A stretch of DNA of 64,000 bases from Candidatus Aenigmatarchaeota archaeon (GTDB lineage: Archaea > Aenigmatarchaeota > Aenigmatarchaeia > CG10238-14 > SpSt-28): the NCBI GenBank assembly GCA_038733315.1, contig JAVYPJ010000001.1, positions 318,832 through 382,831 of the forward strand, in the 5' to 3' direction. Below, in pieces: positions 6,395 to 59,135 of the stretch. Within the stretch, counting starts at the first letter, position 1. Every line of letters begins with the position of its first letter. The notes under the pieces were generated by a model that searched no databases, was not told where the DNA came from, and saw only the letters and a program-made list of their open reading frames with translations. A program made the translations under genes and the position numbers.

Positions 6395-7137
6395 GAATAA
6401 TTGCCATAACTAGCGGAAAAGGTGGTGTCGGTAAAACTTTTTTTTCTGTTAATTTAGCTACGGCGTTAGCAAAAATAGGAAAAAGTGTAACTCTAATAGA
6501 TTCCAACTTTACAACACCTAATACAGCATTAGTTATAGGGTATCTAACTAGATTTAATACTATTCACGATTTTTTAAGCGAAAACGTTAAAGATGTTACT
6601 AGCGTTATACATAAGACCAGATATGGTTTTAAAATAGTGCCAGGTAGTATAGATTTAGATTCTATGGTTAACTCTAACATAGAGATGTTTAGACTGTTCT
6701 TAGAAAAAATAAGGGATGATTTTATAATATTAGATACAGCTGCTGGAATCGGCAGAGAGGCTTTGTATTCTATTTTGAATTCTAACGAAATTATTATAAT
6801 CGTTAATCCAGAAATTTCGAGTATTATAGATGCAAAAAGAATTTTGGATATCTGTAATAGAGTTAATAAAAAAATCTTGGCAATAGTTGCAAACATGGTA
6901 AATAGTAAAAAAAGTGTTAAAAAAATAGAAGAATATATAGGTAAAAGCGTAAATTTAGTTTTACCTGAAGATAAAAGAGTTAGAAATTCTATAGAAAAAA
7001 GAATTCCATATATTGAAATGTATCCAAATTCATACATTTCTTCACAAATTTTGAATTTTGCAAGTTATTTGTCTGGAGAACTCTATACTTTTAAACCAAG
7101 TTTTTTTGAAAGATTGAGATTTTCCTTTTATATATGA
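6391..7137 (+). CDS. MinD/ParA-family P-loop ATPase
   Basis: Deviant Walker A SGKGGVGKT. About 250 aa. Confidence 0.75.
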   Translation: MRIIAITSGKGGVGKTFFSVNLATALAKIGKSVTLIDSNFTTPNTALVIGYLTRFNTIHDFLSENVKDVTSVIHKTRYGFKIVPGSIDLDSMVNSNIEMFRLFLEKIRDDFIILDTAAGIGREALYSILNSNEIIIIVNPEISSIIDAKRILDICNRVNKKILAIVANMVNSKKSVKKIEEYIGKSVNLVLPEDKRVRNSIEKRIPYIEMYPNSYISSQILNFASYLSGELYTFKPSFFERLRFSFYI

Positions 7138-7670
7138 ACGTTTTTGAAGCTATAGAGAAAAGAAAAAGTGTAAGAAAGTATAGAAATATAGATGTGGATT
7201 TAAATAAAATCATAACTATACTAGAATATTCTATATTGGCACCATGCGCAGGAAATGTTCAGGAATGGAGATTTATAGTGGTTAATGACAAAAAAATTAA
7301 AGAAGAGTTAGCAGAAGCTTCTTATAACCAAGATTTTATAGCTGAAGCTCCATATGTTATTGTAATTTGTGCTGATGAAAAAGAAATCTATAACGCATAT
7401 GGTAAAAGAGGAAAAGAGAGATATATGTATATGGATTGTTCTTTTGCAGCGGCAAATATAATTTTATCTGCAGTTTCCTTAGGTTTAGATACTTGTATTG
7501 TTGGCGCCTTTGAAGACGAAAAAGTTAGCAAAATCTTGAATTTGCCAGAAAATATTAAGCCTATATTTATAGTTCCAATCGGTTATGCCGCTGAAGATCC
7601 TATAAGACCCTTAAGAAAGCCGATAAGTTCAATAATTTTTTATAATACTTATGGGAAAAAACTTAAATAG
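7134..7670 (+). CDS. Nitroreductase-family protein
   Basis: Opening EAIEKRKSVRKY and the FMN-binding fold pattern. 178 aa. Confidence 0.7.
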   Translation: MNVFEAIEKRKSVRKYRNIDVDLNKIITILEYSILAPCAGNVQEWRFIVVNDKKIKEELAEASYNQDFIAEAPYVIVICADEKEIYNAYGKRGKERYMYMDCSFAAANIILSAVSLGLDTCIVGAFEDEKVSKILNLPENIKPIFIVPIGYAAEDPIRPLRKPISSIIFYNTYGKKLK

Positions 7671-16149: not shown

Positions 16150-16845
16150 CTATCTTTCGTTAAGAGAAGAAAGAATAAGAGAAATATTAGAAAAACCTCT
16201 TAGTATATGCTTTCCGTTTATTACTATTGTAGGAACTGAGTATATTTCATACATTTCATTAATTATCTCTATCTCACTTAAGTTTAGCTCTTTATCGATT
16301 ATGAAAAAGTAATAATCTAAGTTATATTCTTTAACTTTATCTAACTCTTCTCCCTGCTTTATACAAATGTCTCCACAAGAAGCAGAATAAACATATAGAA
16401 TTGTTGAAATGTTTTTATTGCAATCCTCTATGTATTTTAAAGTAAGAAAATATGAAGTCGATAATAATTTCATGTATTCTCTTTTTAATCTTAAATATTC
16501 CGAAGAAGATCTATATTTTGAATCGTATTCTTCTAATCTATATGGTAATTGTTTTGCAAGCACTTCGAAGCTGTAATATCTTACCTTATTATTTATTCTT
16601 TCTAATAACTTGCACTTTGCATCTCTATTTAAAAAATCCAATAGCAAAATTTCTTTATTTGTGTTTATTTCTTCGTTAAGATTTTTGGCTTCTAAGTATA
16701 GATTCTCGATTTTTTTAAATAATTCGTTTGCATAAAAATACTCAAAAATTTTTAAACCAAAGTAAATTCCTATAAAATAAAAACCTAATGTTAAGAATAT
16801 AGATAATACTAATACATTTTTTATTCTTTTTTTAGCTATCTGCAT
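16150..16845 (-). CDS. Membrane-anchored thioredoxin-fold protein
   Basis: N-terminal TM. C-terminal SASCGDIC plus a cis-Pro-type VPTIVING motif. Confidence 0.4.
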   Translation of the reverse strand: MQIAKKRIKNVLVLSIFLTLGFYFIGIYFGLKIFEYFYANELFKKIENLYLEAKNLNEEINTNKEILLLDFLNRDAKCKLLERINNKVRYYSFEVLAKQLPYRLEEYDSKYRSSSEYLRLKREYMKLLSTSYFLTLKYIEDCNKNISTILYVYSASCGDICIKQGEELDKVKEYNLDYYFFIIDKELNLSEIEIINEMYEIYSVPTIVINGKHILRGFSNISLILSSLNER

Positions 16846-18311
16846 ATTAATATATAGATACTAGGTTTTTTAATTTCTTCTAATATTTCTTTGCAATAAT
16901 CTTTTGCATCTTTAATGTTGATAAAAATCTTTATAAACTTTTCAGTTTCGTTATACTCTATAACTTTGTAATTGTATATTATAGGTATTTCTTCTATTTT
17001 TGCGTTAAAATTCCAATATCTTAATACTATTTTTTCATTATATTTTTTATACCAATCTGTTTTAAGGGTATCGTAAAGAGTTATATTTTTTTGATTAATA
17101 AATTTATAATAATACCAGAAGAATTGGCTATCATGAAATGGAGTAAACATTATTTCTTCGTTTTCTGGAATTTTTTCTACAAGTTCTTGAAGCGGAAAAT
17201 ATATGAAATTTTCATCGTATAGCATAGAAAGTCTAATCACAGAGGAATCAAAAAAGATTAACGGCAAAAATAAAATTAAAAAAGCTAAATTCCTTTTAGA
17301 TAAAATTATAAGATTTAGAATTGTTAATGGAAGAGAAAGATAAATGAATTGTCGTGGTAAAACTAAATATCTTGAAGTTAGGATTGAAAATGCTATGTTA
17401 AAAAACAAAATTGTAAAAAAAATTAAAGAATACAAAATTACATACTCATCTCTAAATCTTCTACTAACTAATAGAAATATTGGTAGAATAAACAAAAATT
17501 GCGATATGAGCTTAGAAAAATTTGATAAGTCAGATTGGATTATCATTTTTTCCCAGCTTTGTTCTTTGAAGAGCTCTATAGGAAAATTTAAAAGAAAATC
17601 TTTATAAATTTCTTTAAAATATTCATAAAAAGAAGTACTTCCTTTCCAACTTATGTAGGAGCTAAAAACTATTATTAGAGATGCTAAATAGATAATTAAA
17701 GTTATTAATGGATATTTCAAGTTTTTTACTGTTAAGTCTAGGGCCTTTCTGAATTGCACTCTTTTAACTATAAAGATGAAAAGCATTTTTGCAAACAGTA
17801 GTAAAATGTTAAAATAAAAAACTAATAGTGCTATGCAATCTATCAATACACTCTTTTTAAAATAGTATAATCTATTAAATTTTATATATTTTACAAAATA
17901 AAGGGTAGAGATTGCTGAGAGGAATAGCGAGAGAGAATATGGCCTTACTATTGCTAAGGAATATATTATTGGTGTGAAGGATAATGATAATAATATAATA
18001 ATTTCAAAAATTTTTTTTTGTGTTTTTATAATATTTAGTGTTTTTACACAAAGAACTACTGAGAACGAAACTAATGTAGCAAGAATTAATCTTAAGAATT
18101 CTATTTTAATAGAAAAGACAGTTAATGGGAATATGAAAAAATAAAATATTGGTGTTTGAGTATCCCATACTATACATTCTGTGAAAAAGTAAAGGGAGCA
18201 AATTAGGCTTGCTGTTTCATCTATGTGTGGATCTCTTGAAAAAGAAAAGATTGAGATAATAATGAAAGATATTATCCAGTACAATATATATCTTTTTTCA
18301 ATTTCTATCAT
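16836..18311 (-). CDS. GT-C family membrane glycosyltransferase (ArnT/PMT-like)
   Basis: About 490 aa with 10 or more TM helices and an N-terminal acidic loop motif (RDPHIDE). Part of a glycosylation cluster. Confidence 0.5.
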   Translation of the reverse strand: MIEIEKRYILYWIISFIIISIFSFSRDPHIDETASLICSLYFFTECIVWDTQTPIFYFFIFPLTVFSIKIEFLRLILATLVSFSVVLCVKTLNIIKTQKKIFEIIILLSLSFTPIIYSLAIVRPYSLSLFLSAISTLYFVKYIKFNRLYYFKKSVLIDCIALLVFYFNILLLFAKMLFIFIVKRVQFRKALDLTVKNLKYPLITLIIYLASLIIVFSSYISWKGSTSFYEYFKEIYKDFLLNFPIELFKEQSWEKMIIQSDLSNFSKLISQFLFILPIFLLVSRRFRDEYVILYSLIFFTILFFNIAFSILTSRYLVLPRQFIYLSLPLTILNLIILSKRNLAFLILFLPLIFFDSSVIRLSMLYDENFIYFPLQELVEKIPENEEIMFTPFHDSQFFWYYYKFINQKNITLYDTLKTDWYKKYNEKIVLRYWNFNAKIEEIPIIYNYKVIEYNETEKFIKIFINIKDAKDYCKEILEEIKKPSIYILICR

Positions 18312-24568: not shown

Positions 24569-25087
24569 ATGGTTAAAAAGTTTTATTACATATTATATCC
24601 GAGAAATGTTTATGTTATAGGTGTTGGTAGTGTAAAGAATAATGAAATAAACTTTATGAGCGCTTGTTGGGTTATGCCAGTTGCTACAGATAAAAAACTA
24701 ATAGCTTTTTCGTGCCATAGGGAAAATTATTCTTTCGAGCTTATTGAGAAATATAAGGCTTTTTCTGTTAATGTGACAGATAATATAGATTTAATTTGGA
24801 AGCTTGGAACAACTAGTGGAAGAGAAATAAATAAAGCTAAAGAGTTTGATGTTAAATTCGAAAGCGGGAAGGTTTTGGATGTGCCTATTTTAAAAAATTG
24901 TCTAGCATTTTTAGAGGCAAAAGTTATTAATTATGTTGATGTCTCAGATCATAGATTATACATAGCTGAAGTTATGAATTTGGGTGGAGATATTGGCGAT
25001 TATGGTTTAAGGGAGTATTGGAGAGTTCCATTACATAAGGGTGGAAAGGCTTTTGCAAAAGTTTCTAGAGAATTAAAATTTATTTAA
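24569..25087 (+). CDS. Flavin reductase-like FMN-binding domain protein
   Basis: Sequence pattern VIGVGS...MSACWVMPVA..KLIAFSC is typical of flavin reductase-like split-barrel proteins. Confidence 0.55.
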   Translation: MVKKFYYILYPRNVYVIGVGSVKNNEINFMSACWVMPVATDKKLIAFSCHRENYSFELIEKYKAFSVNVTDNIDLIWKLGTTSGREINKAKEFDVKFESGKVLDVPILKNCLAFLEAKVINYVDVSDHRLYIAEVMNLGGDIGDYGLREYWRVPLHKGGKAFAKVSRELKFI

Positions 25088-28931: not shown

Positions 28932-29080
28932 GCCGGGGTCGCCTAGCTGGCTATGGCGGCGGACTTGAGTGACAGATTGGCGTGAAACTGATTAGAAAAT
29001 GAAAAATGATGTGGGTGTCGAAATGAGAAAGAAATCCGCTGGGCTTTACGCCCGCGTGGGTTCAAATCCCACCCCCGGCG
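28932..29080 (+). tRNA. tRNA-Ser (anticodon TGA) with 64-nt intron (28970..29033)
   Basis: Type II tRNA. Anticodon stem GCGGA/UCCGC is split by an intron after position 37. Long variable arm UGGGCUUUACGCCCGC. Discriminator G73. Exons near-identical to the second Ser gene. Confidence 0.75.
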
Positions 29081-35501: not shown

Positions 35502-35601
35502 GCCGGGGTGGCGGAGTGGCTTCACGCGGCGGGCTGCAGGGTTTTGCGATTTATGAGCGATGGAAACCCGCAGATCCCGGGTTCAAATCCCGGCCCCGGC
35601 T
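35502..35601 (+). tRNA. tRNA-Cys (anticodon GCA) with 26-nt intron (35540..35565)
   Basis: Acceptor GCCGGGG/CCCCGGC. Discriminator U73. Anticodon stem GCGGG/CCCGC interrupted after position 37. Confidence 0.75.
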
Positions 35602-37373: not shown

Positions 37374-38083
37374 TAGGTAGATTTACTATTTATGTTCGAA
37401 AAACCATACTTTTTTAGTAAATTTTCCACTTCTTCCCTAGTGTGTAGGTGGGTATTTAATCCTATCTTCATCGGTATATTTAGAAATAAAATAGAGGCAA
37501 AAATTATAGAATATTTAAATTTTTCTCTTATTGTTTTTAAGTTTTCTATCAATTCCTTATGCATTTTTGAAATAAGATCCTTATCTAATTTTATTTCTCC
37601 ATCTGGATAAACAAGGGCTATTTTTCCAGAATTTTTAAGAACCCTTCTACTTTCTCTTATGAAGTTCTCTAGAGTTTGATCATCTAGATACATAATAAAA
37701 TTTATTGCTGAAATGCCATCGAACATGTTATCGTGATATGGTAGTTTTTCTCTGAAATAATATTTTATAACGTCTACTCTGTCTATACAATTATTCTTTT
37801 CTGCTTTTTTTCTTACCAATTCTAACCCTTTTTCTGATAAATCGAAACCGTAAAATTTAATATTATTCCTATTTTGACCAAGAGCGTAAATAATAAAATT
37901 CCCGCTTCCGCAACCGGCATCTAGAAAGTTTCCTGATGTAAATTTTTCAATTTTCAGAGCGTTATAAGTATCGCGTAGCATTTTTTCATATTCAGGGTGT
38001 TTAGACATAAAATCATAAAAAGGTAGATATATATTCCAAAACAGTTGTTTGGTTAAATCTTTTATAGAAAAAACCTGTGTCAT
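37328..38083 (-). CDS. Class I SAM-dependent methyltransferase
   Basis: LDAGCGSGNF motif I. Follows a UbiE/COQ5-like pattern. Confidence 0.7.
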   Translation of the reverse strand: MTQVFSIKDLTKQLFWNIYLPFYDFMSKHPEYEKMLRDTYNALKIEKFTSGNFLDAGCGSGNFIIYALGQNRNNIKFYGFDLSEKGLELVRKKAEKNNCIDRVDVIKYYFREKLPYHDNMFDGISAINFIMYLDDQTLENFIRESRRVLKNSGKIALVYPDGEIKLDKDLISKMHKELIENLKTIREKFKYSIIFASILFLNIPMKIGLNTHLHTREEVENLLKKYGFSNINSKSTYYSDSVILTSGTIFK

Positions 38084-39597
38084 ATTTGGTATAGCTCTCT
38101 TTCTAATTGTCTTTTAATTTTTTCATACTGATCAATTCTAATTGTGTTATGCGGTTTATGATGTGAAAGTGGATAAACTATATCTTTTAACACATTTGGG
38201 GGTAGTCTTTCTACCTCTATTGTTCTTAAGGATTTGAACATTGGATTCATAAAATCGTATAATCTGTCTTCTATTTCTATAATTTCTTCATCGTTAACAT
38301 TGTCTGGTAACAGAACTATAATTCTATCGTTTTTGTTATCATGGTTTTCAGCAACTTCAGGAATTACTATACAATAATCATATCCGAAATAATGTCTTAG
38401 AATCTCCTCTGCGATATCTAAATTGAAGGAATACTCTCTCACCTTTACTGTTCTTTCATCGCTCTTTCTTCTGATATCATAAGAGAGTGTTGGAAAGGGT
38501 ATTTTCATTTCTATGCCGTTATATATAGTTTCGGTTTCATAGCTTATTAATTTCGTAATATCACCCACAGGATAGTCTATTAGTGCGGTTCCTTCGAATG
38601 GGGCCGTTACTCTGATTTCTCCTTCTTCACCCTCGCTAACGTTATTCCCATATTTATCTACTACTCTAACATGTACAAATGTTTCTCTTACTACTAGGCC
38701 ATCTGTCGGTGGAATACGTCTATTTTCGCTTGACATTACACCATTTGCTATAAAGGCGAATGGACATACCTCTTGCGCTCCATATAGATTAGCAAATATT
38801 CTGGCCCCAATGCTATGTGCTTCTTCTACAGACTTTTTTGATGGTTTATAACCACCGACGCTGATAAGTTCTAATTTATTATATCTTAGACCATTTTCTG
38901 TCATAAATTTTGCTATATCATGAAGTATTGCTGGAGTAGTTTGTATGGCATCTACTTTATCGATAGTTTCTATAACATAGTCTGCTAATCTGCCCCCAAT
39001 AGGTTCTCCATAACATAATAATCTTATGGGTATTCCACGCTTGAGCGAGAACGCTGGAATGGAAACTGCTGGATATAGACCAGAACCAGAAGGCATTCCG
39101 TATAAATGTGCAAGATCGGCGATAGTAGGTGTTTCTATATCTTTAAAAACTGTCTTTATGCTTGGATATAAAATCTTATTAAAAAACTCTTCAATATCTC
39201 TCGCTGTATATGCAACAGTTTTTCGTTTAAATATTTTTGGAAATTCTTTAAGGTCGTACCTCCCTCTAATCTTTTCTATTGAAGTATATCCTGATGAGGA
39301 CTGAACCCATATTCTGTACTTAGGATCTACCATGCTTAAATGTTGAGAAAAGTTCTTACCCATTAGATCATTTGGTTTTGGAGAAATTACCGATCCATAT
39401 TTTTCTAGAAATCTATCTAATTTTTCAATGGTGTTTATTTGTTTAACTTCCCAAATATCTATATCGTTTTCCTTTAATTTTTTTCGATAAAATGGTATTT
39501 GAAGTGCATTTCTAGCTCTCTTCGCAATTTTATTTCTCTCTCTTTCAATATATAATTTTCCTACTCCGTTATAAATTAGTTGTTTAATGTTTATCAT
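38080..39597 (-). CDS. Adenylate-forming enzyme of the ANL superfamily (PaaK/CapK/F390-synthetase-like)
   Basis: N-terminal IPFY motif, SSSGYTS (A3-like), YGAQE (A5), GEEGEIRV (A6), YPVGDI (A7), RRKSDERTVKV (A8). Confidence 0.5.
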   Translation of the reverse strand: MINIKQLIYNGVGKLYIERERNKIAKRARNALQIPFYRKKLKENDIDIWEVKQINTIEKLDRFLEKYGSVISPKPNDLMGKNFSQHLSMVDPKYRIWVQSSSGYTSIEKIRGRYDLKEFPKIFKRKTVAYTARDIEEFFNKILYPSIKTVFKDIETPTIADLAHLYGMPSGSGLYPAVSIPAFSLKRGIPIRLLCYGEPIGGRLADYVIETIDKVDAIQTTPAILHDIAKFMTENGLRYNKLELISVGGYKPSKKSVEEAHSIGARIFANLYGAQEVCPFAFIANGVMSSENRRIPPTDGLVVRETFVHVRVVDKYGNNVSEGEEGEIRVTAPFEGTALIDYPVGDITKLISYETETIYNGIEMKIPFPTLSYDIRRKSDERTVKVREYSFNLDIAEEILRHYFGYDYCIVIPEVAENHDNKNDRIIVLLPDNVNDEEIIEIEDRLYDFMNPMFKSLRTIEVERLPPNVLKDIVYPLSHHKPHNTIRIDQYEKIKRQLERELYQI

Positions 39598-39606
39598 ATT
39601 TTTAAA

Positions 39607-40161
39607 TTAAATAATAGCTACCTTAAATTCTTCGACTTCATCGCCTTTAGAGTGACATCTTATCTCTTCTACTATAACCTCTCTGTTAGTAAATAACTTT
39701 GCCCATACATATAAATTTACTTTATAGAGTATACAAACTCTCGACTTACCATTGAAGACATTTTTAGAGAATTCTAAGATGGGAGAGTTTTTTATTATGA
39801 CATCTAAGATAATATTTCCAGATTTTTCATCTCTAAAAACGTTCTTAATCTCGACCTTGCCTAGTCCGTATATATCCAGGAAAGATTCTAGATTTTTTAA
39901 AGGTTTTATATCTTGTAGGTCTTCAATGGTTGGAATATTAAATATTTTAAATACCTTTTCCATAGCAATTTTACAGGCTTCTAACAATATCTTTTCGGTC
40001 TTTTCTTCTCCTATTTCCTCAATAACTTTTTGATAAAGATACGCGAGAGAATCCGCTTCTACAAAGACAATGTTGTATTTACCCATTACTGATATTCTAC
40101 CGTTTTCTATGCTTAGTGCTCCAGCAAGCATCATTCTTTTGAAAAAATCTGATATTGCCAT
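39607..40161 (-). CDS. V4R-like domain protein (predicted small-molecule binding)
   Basis: C-terminal EEIRCHSKGDEVEEF resembles the V4R terminal C..G..C-F motif with one Cys lost. First gene of the operon with the PaaK-like enzyme and methyltransferase. Confidence 0.35.
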   Translation of the reverse strand: MAISDFFKRMMLAGALSIENGRISVMGKYNIVFVEADSLAYLYQKVIEEIGEEKTEKILLEACKIAMEKVFKIFNIPTIEDLQDIKPLKNLESFLDIYGLGKVEIKNVFRDEKSGNIILDVIIKNSPILEFSKNVFNGKSRVCILYKVNLYVWAKLFTNREVIVEEIRCHSKGDEVEEFKVAII

Positions 40162-44557: not shown

Positions 44558-45118
44558 CTAAAATATATACTTTAAAGATTTTTGAACGAACTCTTTTAAT
44601 TCTTCAGAGTTTTTTGGATTAAGATTAACATAAGATTTTAGCAGTTCTTTTAGTTCTGAATGTGGTATTTCTGTAATTTTTGAATTATTAAATAATTTTT
44701 TTAACATCTCTTTATTTTCTGAAATTTGAAATTGTATAGCTTGTGTAAAAAATTCTATTATGATCTTTAAAATTCCTGTTGCATAGGGATCTTTGGATTG
44801 TAATAAGAACTCTCTAACATCTTCATTTTCCTCGAGAAGAATGTGGTGGAGTATTTCTTCTTCCATTATTCTACGTAGCTCTTGTTTATCAGAAAAAAGA
44901 TACGTAGGAATAGTTATTTTATGTGAGTAAATGTCATAAGAGGGAAAGAGTTCTTTTAGAGAAGTTTTACACATACTAAAAGATGGGATTTTTATAGTTT
45001 TTTTTGGAATTTCATACTTTTCAACAACAGTATTATACAAATATTCTGTAAGCTTATTTATTTCTTTTTTATATTTTCTTTCGTCTAATACGTGTTTTTT
45101 GTATTTTTTATACGACAT
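44558..45118 (-). CDS. Hypothetical helical protein
   Basis: 186 aa. Contains EEEILHHILLEE. No confident family assignment. Confidence 0.3.
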   Translation of the reverse strand: MSYKKYKKHVLDERKYKKEINKLTEYLYNTVVEKYEIPKKTIKIPSFSMCKTSLKELFPSYDIYSHKITIPTYLFSDKQELRRIMEEEILHHILLEENEDVREFLLQSKDPYATGILKIIIEFFTQAIQFQISENKEMLKKLFNNSKITEIPHSELKELLKSYVNLNPKNSEELKEFVQKSLKYIF

Positions 45119-45127
45119 ATACTTTTT

Positions 45128-45553
45128 TTATTTTTTTAAAAGATAATTTTTTACAAAATTTTTAAACACATTATAAACTTCACCCGGATTTATTGCGTAA
45201 TTTACCCGATTACTATTTAGTTTATTTTTGTCTTCTTTCTTTGTCACTGAGTTGTTGCGGTATAGGGTTAAATAACATACATTTTTATTGTTATCTTTGC
45301 TAAAAAATACCTCTCCAATTAATGAATCAGAGGTGCGAAATTTTATCTCTAAGTATTTACAGACTTTCCTGTTACTAAAACACTTACATCCATCAAGTTT
45401 GTCTGGATTTGAAATTTCTTTATTTTCTATGTCTATATTTAGAAGCTCGTAATCTCGATGTTCGGGATGTCTGCATTTAAATTGGATAGATTTTGAATTG
45501 CAAAAAAGTTCCTTCACAATAGTTTTCAGTTCGCTTTTTTCTAACTTTCTCAT
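45128..45553 (-). CDS. Hypothetical Cys/His-rich protein
   Basis: 141 aa. CNSKSIQFKCRHPEH and CKCFSNRKVC clusters suggest Zn binding. Confidence 0.3.
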   Translation of the reverse strand: MRKLEKSELKTIVKELFCNSKSIQFKCRHPEHRDYELLNIDIENKEISNPDKLDGCKCFSNRKVCKYLEIKFRTSDSLIGEVFFSKDNNKNVCYLTLYRNNSVTKKEDKNKLNSNRVNYAINPGEVYNVFKNFVKNYLLKK

Positions 45554-50647: not shown

Positions 50648-50766
50648 TGCGGGGGGTGGGATTTGAACCCACGACGGCTCTACGCCATCGGGTTTCTTAT
50701 CATTTATTCAAAGCTTAAGATTTTATCTTAAGCCCGACGCCCTTGACCAGGCTAGGCGACCCCCGC
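50648..50766 (-). tRNA. tRNA-Leu (anticodon TAA) with ~33-nt intron
   Basis: Type II tRNA with long variable arm. The anticodon stem UCGGG/CCCGA is split after position 37. The intron carries CUUAAG, complementary to the exon's CUUAAG (BHB helix). Confidence 0.75.
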
Positions 50767-50816: not shown

Positions 50817-52226
50817 TTAGGCTTGATCTTGAATATACTTTTCTCCTTTTCTTAATTTTTCAAAAGCTTTTGTAATTTCTTTTCCTAAATATAAAGCATG
50901 ATCATATAAACTAAAAAAACTTCCACCCTTTAAGGAATTGTATATTTCCCAAAAATCCTTACTTTCGATTTTAAAATCTATTAAAGAATTATCTGGGGTT
51001 CTATGTTCTAAAACTATTTTATCATTCTCTTGATAAATTAAAAATAGACCTTTTGGATCTTCTACAAATTCTTTCATTTTAAATGAATATTTATTCAATA
51101 TTTCTCTTACTAAATTCCAATCGTGCTGATAAATATGTGCACTTGTAGAAATTGTTGTTATTGTTTCGATTTCAAAATTCGATTTAGTTTCTTTATTTAT
51201 TTCATTAACAATATATTCTGCTAATTTTATTTGAGCAACAATATTTATTGGCCATCCTTTGACCATATCATTACTTCTAATCCAAACAGTATGATTATAA
51301 TAATTTTCTGTTATTATTCCTTGAATACCTATTATGCATGGTGGATTTGGGGAATTTTGATCTATTAAATGATCCCATGAAACAATTAAAGCTCTTCTTG
51401 AATAAGGAGCTTTAGATAATTTGTCAATTAAATATTTAACTTGATTTTTTCCAAATCTATGTTCAAAGATTCTTTCTCCATATGTATATTCTACACTTTC
51501 TAATTTTTTTGGATATAAAACTTCATTAATATGCCTTTCAAAATCTTCTCTTTTCAAAAATTCAAAAAATTCTTCTTCAATTTTATATTCTTTACCATAT
51601 AGACCTATAGTAATCATTAAATTTAAAAATTCTTTTTGTGGTTCTTCATATTCTGAAAATTTTATACTTCCAAATTTCATTATTAAATCTAAAATTTTTA
51701 TCCATGCTCTAAAAATGCTTGTATCGTATATATAGCTACCGCTTAATGGAATTGGCCAAGAAGCTAATTCTACTTTTTCTTCAATTGTTATATCGATTTT
51801 TTCTCTAACTTCTTTTGCATTTGTTTTAAAATTTTTTTCTATTTCTTCTTCAAGTTTTTTAATATTATTTCTTTTAAATTCTTCTCTTAAATCAATAATT
51901 TTAACTGTATTCAAAACATTTTCAATTTTATTTATTGGAAAAATTATTTTATAATCTTTAAAATTTTTGTTTTTAAAAACATCGATTAAAGCTTTTCCAC
52001 TTAGAGATAAATCAGCACCATAGATTATTAAAGTATCTATTTTTGGAAATTGTGCTAACGTTTCCAAAATAAAATTAATTCCATAAGTTGTATAAGTAGT
52101 TCCAATAATTCCAATTTTACTTCTTATTTTCTCTTGTAGTTGATTTAAAATTATTTCTTTTTTTGACCATAGAGTTGATATAGCAATATTACTATTTTCA
52201 TTTAAGATTATTATATCTTTTTTCAT
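50817..52226 (-). CDS. Thymidylate synthase (ThyA)-fold protein with ~150-250 aa N-terminal extension
   Basis: C-terminal domain motifs YTYGERIF, SRRALIVSWD, NPPCII, WIRSNDMVKGWPINIVAQIKLAEYI and TSAHIYQHD. These match YGxQWR, SRRxIxSxWN, LPPCH, YQRSxDxxLGxPFNIASYALL and GDxHLY. Confidence 0.6.
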   Translation of the reverse strand: MKKDIIILNENSNIAISTLWSKKEIILNQLQEKIRSKIGIIGTTYTTYGINFILETLAQFPKIDTLIIYGADLSLSGKALIDVFKNKNFKDYKIIFPINKIENVLNTVKIIDLREEFKRNNIKKLEEEIEKNFKTNAKEVREKIDITIEEKVELASWPIPLSGSYIYDTSIFRAWIKILDLIMKFGSIKFSEYEEPQKEFLNLMITIGLYGKEYKIEEEFFEFLKREDFERHINEVLYPKKLESVEYTYGERIFEHRFGKNQVKYLIDKLSKAPYSRRALIVSWDHLIDQNSPNPPCIIGIQGIITENYYNHTVWIRSNDMVKGWPINIVAQIKLAEYIVNEINKETKSNFEIETITTISTSAHIYQHDWNLVREILNKYSFKMKEFVEDPKGLFLIYQENDKIVLEHRTPDNSLIDFKIESKDFWEIYNSLKGGSFFSLYDHALYLGKEITKAFEKLRKGEKYIQDQA

Positions 52227-53498: not shown

Positions 53499-53637
53499 GC
53501 CGGGGTCGCCTAGCGGATATGGCGCCGGCCTCGAGTTAAATGATAAGCTCTGGGGTAGCTGAAAATAATGATGATTTTGCTATAAGAGAAAGCCGGTGGG
53601 CTTTACGCCCGCGTGGGTTCAAATCCCACCCCCGGCG
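53499..53637 (+). tRNA. tRNA-Ser (anticodon CGA) with 55-nt intron (53536..53590)
   Basis: Acceptor, D-arm, variable arm and T-arm are the same as the tRNA-Ser(TGA) gene at 28932. Anticodon stem CCGGC/GCCGG split after position 37. Discriminator G73. Confidence 0.75.
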
Positions 53638-59038: not shown

Positions 59039-59135
59039 TGGGGCCGCTGGGATTCGAACCCAGGTCAGCGGGTTTCTTCACTTTTCTGAGCTCCATTTCT
59101 GGAGCCCGCCGTCCTGCCATCTAGACGACGGCCCC
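59039..59135 (-). tRNA. tRNA-Trp (anticodon CCA) with ~24-nt intron
   Basis: GGGGCCG acceptor. Anticodon stem GCGGG/CCCGC split after the CUCCAG loop. Intron UGGAGC is complementary to exon GCUCCA (BHB). Confidence 0.75.

Follow-up and report, generated by a model that had tools for sequence, protein, structure and literature searches.

Why should a thymidylate synthase carry a large additional region on its polypeptide? This question is raised by a gene in a 64,000-nucleotide stretch of DNA from a Candidatus Aenigmatarchaeota archaeon (assembly GCA_038733315.1, contig JAVYPJ010000001.1, positions 318,832 to 382,831), hereafter called the window. The gene is a single open reading frame (ORF) at 50817..52226 on the minus strand, which starts with ATG and encodes 469 residues plus a stop codon. 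The product consists of three domains: an MtrA-like domain, a thymidylate synthase (ThyA) domain in the center, and a DUF4346 domain. Judging from its residues, the central domain represents the short archaeal type of thymidylate synthase, and its pyrimidine-activating site is complete. We lean toward the view that the protein methylates dUMP and that the flanking domains would serve as holders for a pterin-type one-carbon (C1) carrier.

Domain architecture

The ThyA assignment of the central domain is far above chance. The 469-residue protein matches NCBIfam TIGR03283 with the ThyA domain at residues 166–371 (E = 1.4e-38, model positions 3–199 of 201) and Pfam PF00303 (E = 1.9e-14), and many solved ThyA chains are matched in sequence comparison. 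All the ThyA landmarks quoted in a first-pass annotation are found in the ORF, namely YGERIF (residues 249–254), SRRALIVSWD (276–285), PPC (295–297), IRSND (316–320), and GWPINIVAQIKLAEYI (324–339). That annotation placed them in the C-terminal ~220 residues of a two-part protein, an extension followed by ThyA. The ThyA domain is actually central (residues ~162–385; 51072..51743, minus strand), and the last 84 residues (386–469; 50820..51071, minus strand) form a further domain of three strands and two helices, which had been overlooked. Residues 389–467 match PF14251, PterinBD-DUF4346, over the full model (1–86) with 59.7 bits against a cut-off of 29.6 (E = 5e-16).

An AlphaFold2 model calculated with 88 homologues as input shows the three domains with a mean pLDDT (predicted local distance difference test) of 93.7 and a pTM (predicted template modeling score) of 0.77. 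The region preceding ThyA, which includes IGIIGTTYTTYGINF (residues 38–52), indeed has no ThyA counterpart, since ThyA is complete at residues 162–385. The extension was thought to be ~150–250 residues long. In the model, it is ~160 residues, made up of a 132-residue folded domain with a Rossmann-like α/β structure (residues 1–132; 51831..52226, minus strand) and a 29-residue linker (residues 133–161; 51744..51830, minus strand). DSSP assigns neither helix nor strand to the linker, and residues 141–160 are the block with the lowest pLDDT (78–87). Full-length homologues with 97% identity (P0001 and L009/L010) support the complete ORF, together with the ORF listing and the model.

The reading of the N-terminal region as a diverged N-terminal lobe of ThyA with inserts can be set aside as refuted. 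No evidence was found for it, and residues 162–385 align from the first helix with stand-alone archaeal ThyA proteins of 205–218 residues, in addition to covering positions 3–199 of the 201 in TIGR03283.

Active site of the ThyA domain

Residues 162–385 adopt the α/β fold of ThyA. The key residues are Tyr249, Gly250, and Arg252 (in YTYGER), Arg277-Arg278, Pro296-Cys297, Arg317-Ser318-Asp320, Asn328, and His364-Tyr366. When mapped onto E. coli ThyA, Tyr249 corresponds to Tyr94, Arg277/Arg278 to Arg126/Arg127, Cys297 to Cys146, Arg317/Ser318/Asp320 to Arg166/Ser167/Asp169, Asn328 to Asn177, and His364/Tyr366 to His207/Tyr209. These mapped residues are invariant or at least 90% conserved in the fusion family. 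Pro296-Cys297 is aligned with the PC of the S. aureus, E. faecalis, and E. coli enzymes. Cys297, the predicted catalytic nucleophile, is encoded at 51336..51338 on the minus strand; the assignment is based on the translation, the P-C alignment, and the family conservation. The Asn at the Asn177 position suggests that uracil is favored over cytosine. Among the options offered by the first-pass annotation, a divergent thymidylate synthase fits best. A hydroxymethylase-like enzyme or an enzyme acting on a non-nucleotide substrate finds little support, as Asn328, which specifies uracil, the deoxyribose-binding His364/Tyr366, Tyr249 for the C5 proton, and three of the four phosphate-binding arginines are kept.

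The folate-binding elements should be noted. In the MAFFT alignment, the E. coli segment from ~Glu58 to Trp83 (including Ile79, Trp80, and Trp83) and the last ~50 residues, which form the C-terminal lid, have no counterpart in the ThyA domain. In this respect, and in its two extra domains, the protein differs from classical ThyA (PF00303; E. coli, L. casei, and human; EC 2.1.1.45). Both deletions are, however, common to the stand-alone short ThyA proteins of archaea. The query shares YTYGER, (S/T)RRA, PC, RSND, WPxN, and SAHIY with the 205–218-residue proteins of Altiarchaeota and Thorarchaeota, which belong to the TIGR03283 type (exemplified by M. jannaschii MJ0757), whereas those stand-alone enzymes consist of ThyA only. 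The gene of the Altiarchaeota relative overlaps the start of a serine hydroxymethyltransferase (SHMT) gene, and that of the Thorarchaeota relative adjoins the genes of NrdD (anaerobic ribonucleotide reductase) and a thioredoxin-like protein. These neighbors speak for ordinary dTMP synthesis. A neighbor-joining tree, which carries no support values, separates the fused ThyA domains from the stand-alone ones, except for P0284, which falls among the fused.

In layout, with an N-terminal α/β domain joined to ThyA through a linker, the chain resembles the bifunctional dihydrofolate reductase-thymidylate synthases (DHFR-TS) of protozoa and plants. Full-length Foldseek alignments with DHFR-TS exist, but superposition is found in the ThyA part only. 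A DHFR-TS-like bifunctional enzyme was rejected because the N-terminal domain has neither similarity to DHFR nor its fold.

The top structural neighbor of the ThyA domain is a short ThyA-like protein of 234–238 residues (PDB 9iqc, 9iqu, and 9ir2). PDB 9iqc was deposited under the title 'Monooxygenase dependent on riboflavin with dCMP and FAD', and the alignment with the protein covers the profile of short archaeal ThyA from end to end (E = 8e-17). The entry hints that some short ThyA-fold proteins may use flavin. No paper describing it was found in the literature searched.

The N-terminal MtrA-like domain

Residues 1–132 share the Rossmann-like fold and sequence homology of MtrA (PF04208), the corrinoid subunit of methyl-tetrahydromethanopterin:coenzyme M methyltransferase (PDB 5laa, 5l8x, and 8q3v). 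The family signature appears as TLW (residues 18–20), GTxYTxxGIN (42–51), GxDxSxSG (70–77), and IDLR (111–114). The conserved loops, TLW, GxLY(S/T)xxGIN, GxDxxxSG, and IDLR in the family, are situated at the C-terminal ends of strands.

MtrA binds cobalamin in the base-off/His-on mode, in which the ligand His84 is held by Glu54 and a conserved meander motif, 109-GAIPF(Y/F)xEN, lies nearby (PMC4915002). The nucleotide tail of cobalamin contacts Asp17, Tyr18, Lys52, Thr53, Gly57, Val61, and Asn64 (PMC4915002). In the fusion family, His84-Ile85 falls in a two-residue deletion in all 88 members and in 68 of 69 full-length representatives of 50% clusters, the remaining one having Gly-Thr. Glu54 is replaced by a non-conserved Ser, Thr, or Lys, Asn55 is likewise not conserved, and Lys52 is changed to Tyr almost without exception. 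The subgroup of the query has lost the meander motif, which is partly kept (as IIGxxxYIDxNI) in a remote subgroup only. Some contacts with the nucleotide tail are kept, namely those of Thr53 (as Ser or Thr), Gly57 (as Gly), and Val61 (as a hydrophobic residue), and that of Asn64 (as Asn) in the remote subgroup. The domain has strongly conserved loops of its own but no cobalt ligand, so that it very probably has a binding partner, though not cobalamin held as it is in MtrA.

Unlike MtrA, the query also has no C-terminal membrane helix, and ThyA follows the domain instead. An mtr operon is absent from its surroundings, none of the 69 window ORFs scanned with Pfam being an mtr gene. The MtrA fold, usually taken as a marker of methanogenesis, is reused here without the cobalt ligand, which calls for caution when metabolism is deduced from 'MtrA' annotations.

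The C-terminal DUF4346 domain and its pairing with MtrA

The conserved residues of the DUF4346 domain in the query are Asp390, Gly393, His443-Ala444-x-Tyr446-x-Gly448-x-Glu450, and Gln466. Asp390, Gly393, His443, Ala444, Tyr446, Gly448, and Glu450 coincide with columns that are invariant among 59 stand-alone DUF4346 proteins, and the motif D-x-x-G ... H-A-A-Y-L-G-x-E-L ... Q hardly varies between the contexts in which the domain occurs. A profile search gave 178 proteins, mostly stand-alone ones of 90–150 residues, from DPANN archaea, Bathyarchaeota, Chloroflexi, and Acidobacteria. Their source labels are often 'MtrA' or 'dihydropteroate synthase(-like)'.

MtrA-like and DUF4346 domains are a recurrent pair, between which ThyA is placed in the fusion family. 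In NCBIfam NF002128, an MtrA domain is directly followed by DUF4346 in the same N-to-C order as in the query. TIGR00284, an archaeal dihydropteroate-synthase-like protein, has DUF4346 in common with the query, at its end. The query differs from these two families in that ThyA is inserted between the modules, whereas DUF4346 is accompanied by nothing further or by a pterin-binding barrel in them. Three stand-alone DUF4346 loci were checked: the two DPANN copies lack any C1-related neighbor, and the bacterial copy adjoins an MtrA homologue. In this bacterial contig (L034, 3914–5303), genes for a 177-residue membrane protein, an MtrA homologue, and a stand-alone DUF4346 protein stand in a row. 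The MtrA homologue, the only such DUF4346-adjacent copy examined, keeps the TEN motif and the His, unlike the query. The row is flanked by FGE-sulfatase genes. The MtrA ORF ends abnormally; it and the DUF4346 gene may be parts of one MtrA-DUF4346 gene separated by a frameshift in the 5x long-read assembly.

DUF4346 starts exactly where the stand-alone short ThyA proteins end and where classical ThyA enters its lid. Since MAFFT and ThyA hidden Markov model alignments extend into DUF4346 in some relatives, homology of the domain with the C-terminal hairpin of ThyA was considered. This idea was dropped because hhalign of the DUF4346 profile against E. coli ThyA gave a probability of 0.2%; only the positional argument is kept.

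Distribution of the fusion

Proteins with this three-domain layout are found in DPANN archaea of hot springs and in some Thermoproteota. A word-indexed protein search gave 132 homologues, nearly all of which have 435–500 residues and the same architecture; where they are named in databases, the names are 'thymidylate synthase' or 'DUF4346 domain-containing protein'. An exhaustive phmmer search of 1.84 billion cluster representatives with the N-terminal domain gave 144 matches at E ≤ 1e-3, and most are proteins of 450–530 residues with the MtrA-like domain at the N terminus. MtrA, ThyA, and DUF4346 were all found with Pfam in 7 of 10 distant 50%-cluster representatives sampled. A two-domain ThyA-DUF4346 form, P0241, also exists.

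A scan of GTDB genomes located the closest copies (97% identity) in metagenome-assembled genomes (MAGs) of hot-spring 'Aenigmatarchaeota' and others in Nanopusillaceae, a Woesearchaeota MAG, and a Thermofilaceae MAG; as the scan was made with an alignment of the query subgroup, it is biased to that subgroup, and the remote one is under-sampled. The cultured Nanobdella aerobiophila MJ1, with a complete genome of 0.67 Mb, carries a copy with 50% identity, and another copy is present in the complete 0.77-Mb genome of Nanoarchaeota archaeon YN1. Its occurrence in such extremely reduced symbionts means that the fusion bears on their supply of DNA precursors and their dependence on host cofactors.

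In several MAGs, the fusion gene is seemingly spread over two or three ORFs or partly matched (L029, 3818–5238; L031, 5275–6684; L030, 6001–7276; L028, 853–2220). These broken copies are pseudogenes or assembly errors. P0118, a protein of 461 residues on a 51-kb contig, is labeled Candidatus Parcubacteria, a bacterium of the candidate phyla radiation. It is 33% identical to the query, has ThyA and DUF4346 Pfam domains, and is aligned in the N-terminal region, which suggests either that the gene passed between archaea and bacteria of ultra-small size or that the contig was mis-binned.

Proposed reaction and possible role of the flanking domains

The explanation that we favor, by no wide measure of confidence, is a dUMP-methylating enzyme whose flanking domains act as cofactor holders. 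Cys297 would attack C6 of dUMP, a C1 unit would be joined to C5, and Tyr249 would take the C5 proton before dTMP leaves. This course is proposed because of the residue conservation and the neighbors of the stand-alone relatives. The MtrA-like domain and DUF4346 may stand in for the absent cofactor-holding elements by binding or presenting a pterin-type C1 carrier, such as a methanopterin-, sarcinapterin-, or sulfopterin-like compound, which could be host-derived in these reduced symbionts. His-on cobalamin chemistry of the MtrA type would not be involved. The cofactor-holding role is suggested because MtrA-like and DUF4346 domains are elsewhere paired with each other or fused to proteins of the methanopterin pathway. 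An active ThyA is supported by the retention of the fusion in complete DPANN genomes of 0.67–0.77 Mb and by the relatives P0086 and P0099, which reach the equivalog cut-off of TIGR03283. The fusion may be regarded as a 'Rosetta stone': a ThyA core joined to two C1 modules of methanopterin and corrinoid metabolism names concrete candidate partners and may thereby indicate which C1 donor the thymidylate synthases of archaea use.

Several observations weigh against this explanation. The phosphate-binding Arg21 of E. coli, the fourth of its set, has no clear equivalent in the ThyA domain. The query scores 132.5 bits against TIGR03283, below the equivalog cut-off of 174.55, whereas relatives with the same architecture lie at or above it (P0086, 193.0; P0099, 174.6). 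The query is hence a diverged member of the same clade and not an equivalog match. All the evidence for the putative cofactor role of the flanking domains is co-occurrence of domains. At the 24 loci inspected, no conserved neighbor genes support any cofactor, and none are shared beyond the closest relatives. Neither thyX nor the genes of SHMT (glyA) and DHFR (folA) were found among the 69 window ORFs, nor were folD, dCMP deaminase, and dUTPase in the Pfam scan, though the window, a small part of the genome, says little in this regard. Finally, in the Vulcanisaeta proteins P0096 and P0101, and also in P0300, P0313, and P0305, the catalytic Cys, the Arg pair, and YTYGER are gone, while the MtrA-like domain, DUF4346, and the ThyA scaffold are still present. 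P0096 and P0101 are identical at 172 of 178 positions in the ThyA region. The flanking domains of such variants are under purifying selection, so that the scaffold has some role independent of ThyA catalysis. A Vulcanisaeta copy (L004, 8001–9251) directly follows pyrB-pyrI-pyrE-pyrD on the same strand and is possibly a pseudo-enzyme that acts in binding or regulation.

These variants bear most directly on another explanation, which we consider rather unlikely: the flanking domains would be regulatory or assembly modules, and ThyA would use a freely diffusing methylene-pterin. The pocket of the MtrA-like domain corresponding to that for the cobalamin nucleotide tail might sense a nucleotide or another effector, and DUF4346 might serve in oligomerization or partner binding. 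The retention of both flanking domains by the predicted catalytically dead P0096 and P0101 and the position of the Vulcanisaeta copy behind the pyr genes agree with this, as does the pattern of substitutions, in which MtrA's contacts with the nucleotide tail are for the most part kept and the corrin contacts (Asn55 and His84) are lost. The domains are also separable, as ThyA occurs alone or with DUF4346 (P0241) and DUF4346 occurs alone. However, DUF4346 is repeatedly tied to C1 proteins of pterin and corrinoid metabolism and not to nucleotide metabolism in general, and the short ThyA core has no canonical folate-holding elements, so that compensation would be needed. No effector is known. A product other than dTMP is highly improbable. 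It could be another modified pyrimidine nucleotide, e.g., 5-hydroxymethyl-dUMP, or a flavin-dependent product of the kind suggested by PDB 9iqc. The C-terminal ThyA lid is absent here as it is in T4 dCMP hydroxymethylase. On the other side, cytosine-specific hydroxymethylases carry Asp at the Asn177 position (Asp179 in the T4 enzyme; the title of PDB 6l18 contains 'D179N'), at which the fusion family conserves Asn328. The SHMT and NrdD neighbors of the stand-alone relatives point to ordinary dNTP supply, and the gene is kept in highly reduced genomes.

It is very unlikely that the fusion represents a third route to thymidylate beside ThyA and the flavin-dependent ThyX, with the flanks delivering a C1 unit other than free methylene-tetrahydrofolate. 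This could take the form of a tightly bound carrier of the methanopterin or sulfopterin type, or of a base-off/His-off corrinoid whose methyl group is passed to Cys-activated dUMP. If true, it would identify the co-substrate system of archaeal short ThyA. The corrinoid form, taken as an explanation in itself, is very unlikely too. The MtrA-like domain would bind the corrinoid in the manner of the corrinoid iron-sulfur protein, and methyl-Co(III) would methylate the C5 carbanion of Cys-activated dUMP, giving a dTMP route independent of folate and of a reductant. Cys-dependent C5-methyltransferases offer a parallel in chemistry. The partial conservation of the nucleotide-tail pocket, the absence from the ThyA core of the elements for folate binding and hydride transfer (Glu58, Trp80, Trp83, and the lid), and the attachment of DUF4346 to MtrA homologues that have the His and Glu are consistent with this form. 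However, His84 and Glu54 are absent throughout the family, and the query subgroup has lost the meander. No methyl-donor enzyme resembling MtrH or MeTr is fused or adjacent at the 24 loci, and the stand-alone ThyA relatives are paired with SHMT, a supplier of methylene-pterin. DPANN archaea are not known to make cobamides.

Relation to earlier work

Thymidylate synthesis is essential for DNA, and the C1 donor of archaeal short ThyA has hardly been studied. Modified folates are used in archaeal dTMP synthesis, and the cofactor specificity of archaeal ThyA is essentially unexplored (PMC9931769, PMC9012536). According to papers of 2022 and 2023, the biochemistry of methanogen ThyA is little known, and the characterization of archaeal thymidylate synthase was never followed up (PMC9012536, PMC9931769). 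The fusion sequences and their Pfam domains are already in public databases, while the layout itself was not found described: the literature searched gave no paper on an MtrA/ThyA/DUF4346 fusion or on DUF4346, nothing on thymidylate synthesis in Nanobdella, and nothing relevant linking MtrA with thymidylate synthase.

Other features of the window

The window has a GC content of ~27% and contains an archaeal signal recognition particle RNA, 12 tRNAs, and housekeeping genes. The genes adjoining the fusion encode a GTPase, L37Ae, a CBS protein, and aspartyl-tRNA synthetase. A nitroreductase-family protein is encoded at 7134–7670 (plus strand) and a flavin-reductase-like protein at 24569–25087 (plus strand). 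Small flavoproteins such as these are the kind of candidate to be considered for dihydropterin reduction if the genome has no DHFR.

Sizeable ORFs with no Pfam match at E ≤ 1e-3 have 505, 491, 231, 184, 186, and 141 codons for amino acids; the Pfam-less ORFs include those at 38080–39597, 16836–18311, 16150–16845, 39607–40161, and 44558–45553, all on the minus strand. Five of the 12 Rfam tRNA matches are 97–149 nucleotides long (28932–29080, 35502–35601, 50648–50766, 53499–53637, and 59039–59135). ARAGORN missed four of them and reported the fifth as 'tRNA-???' with a four-base anticodon. Introns are the presumed reason for the length of these five tRNAs, two of which flank the fusion gene.

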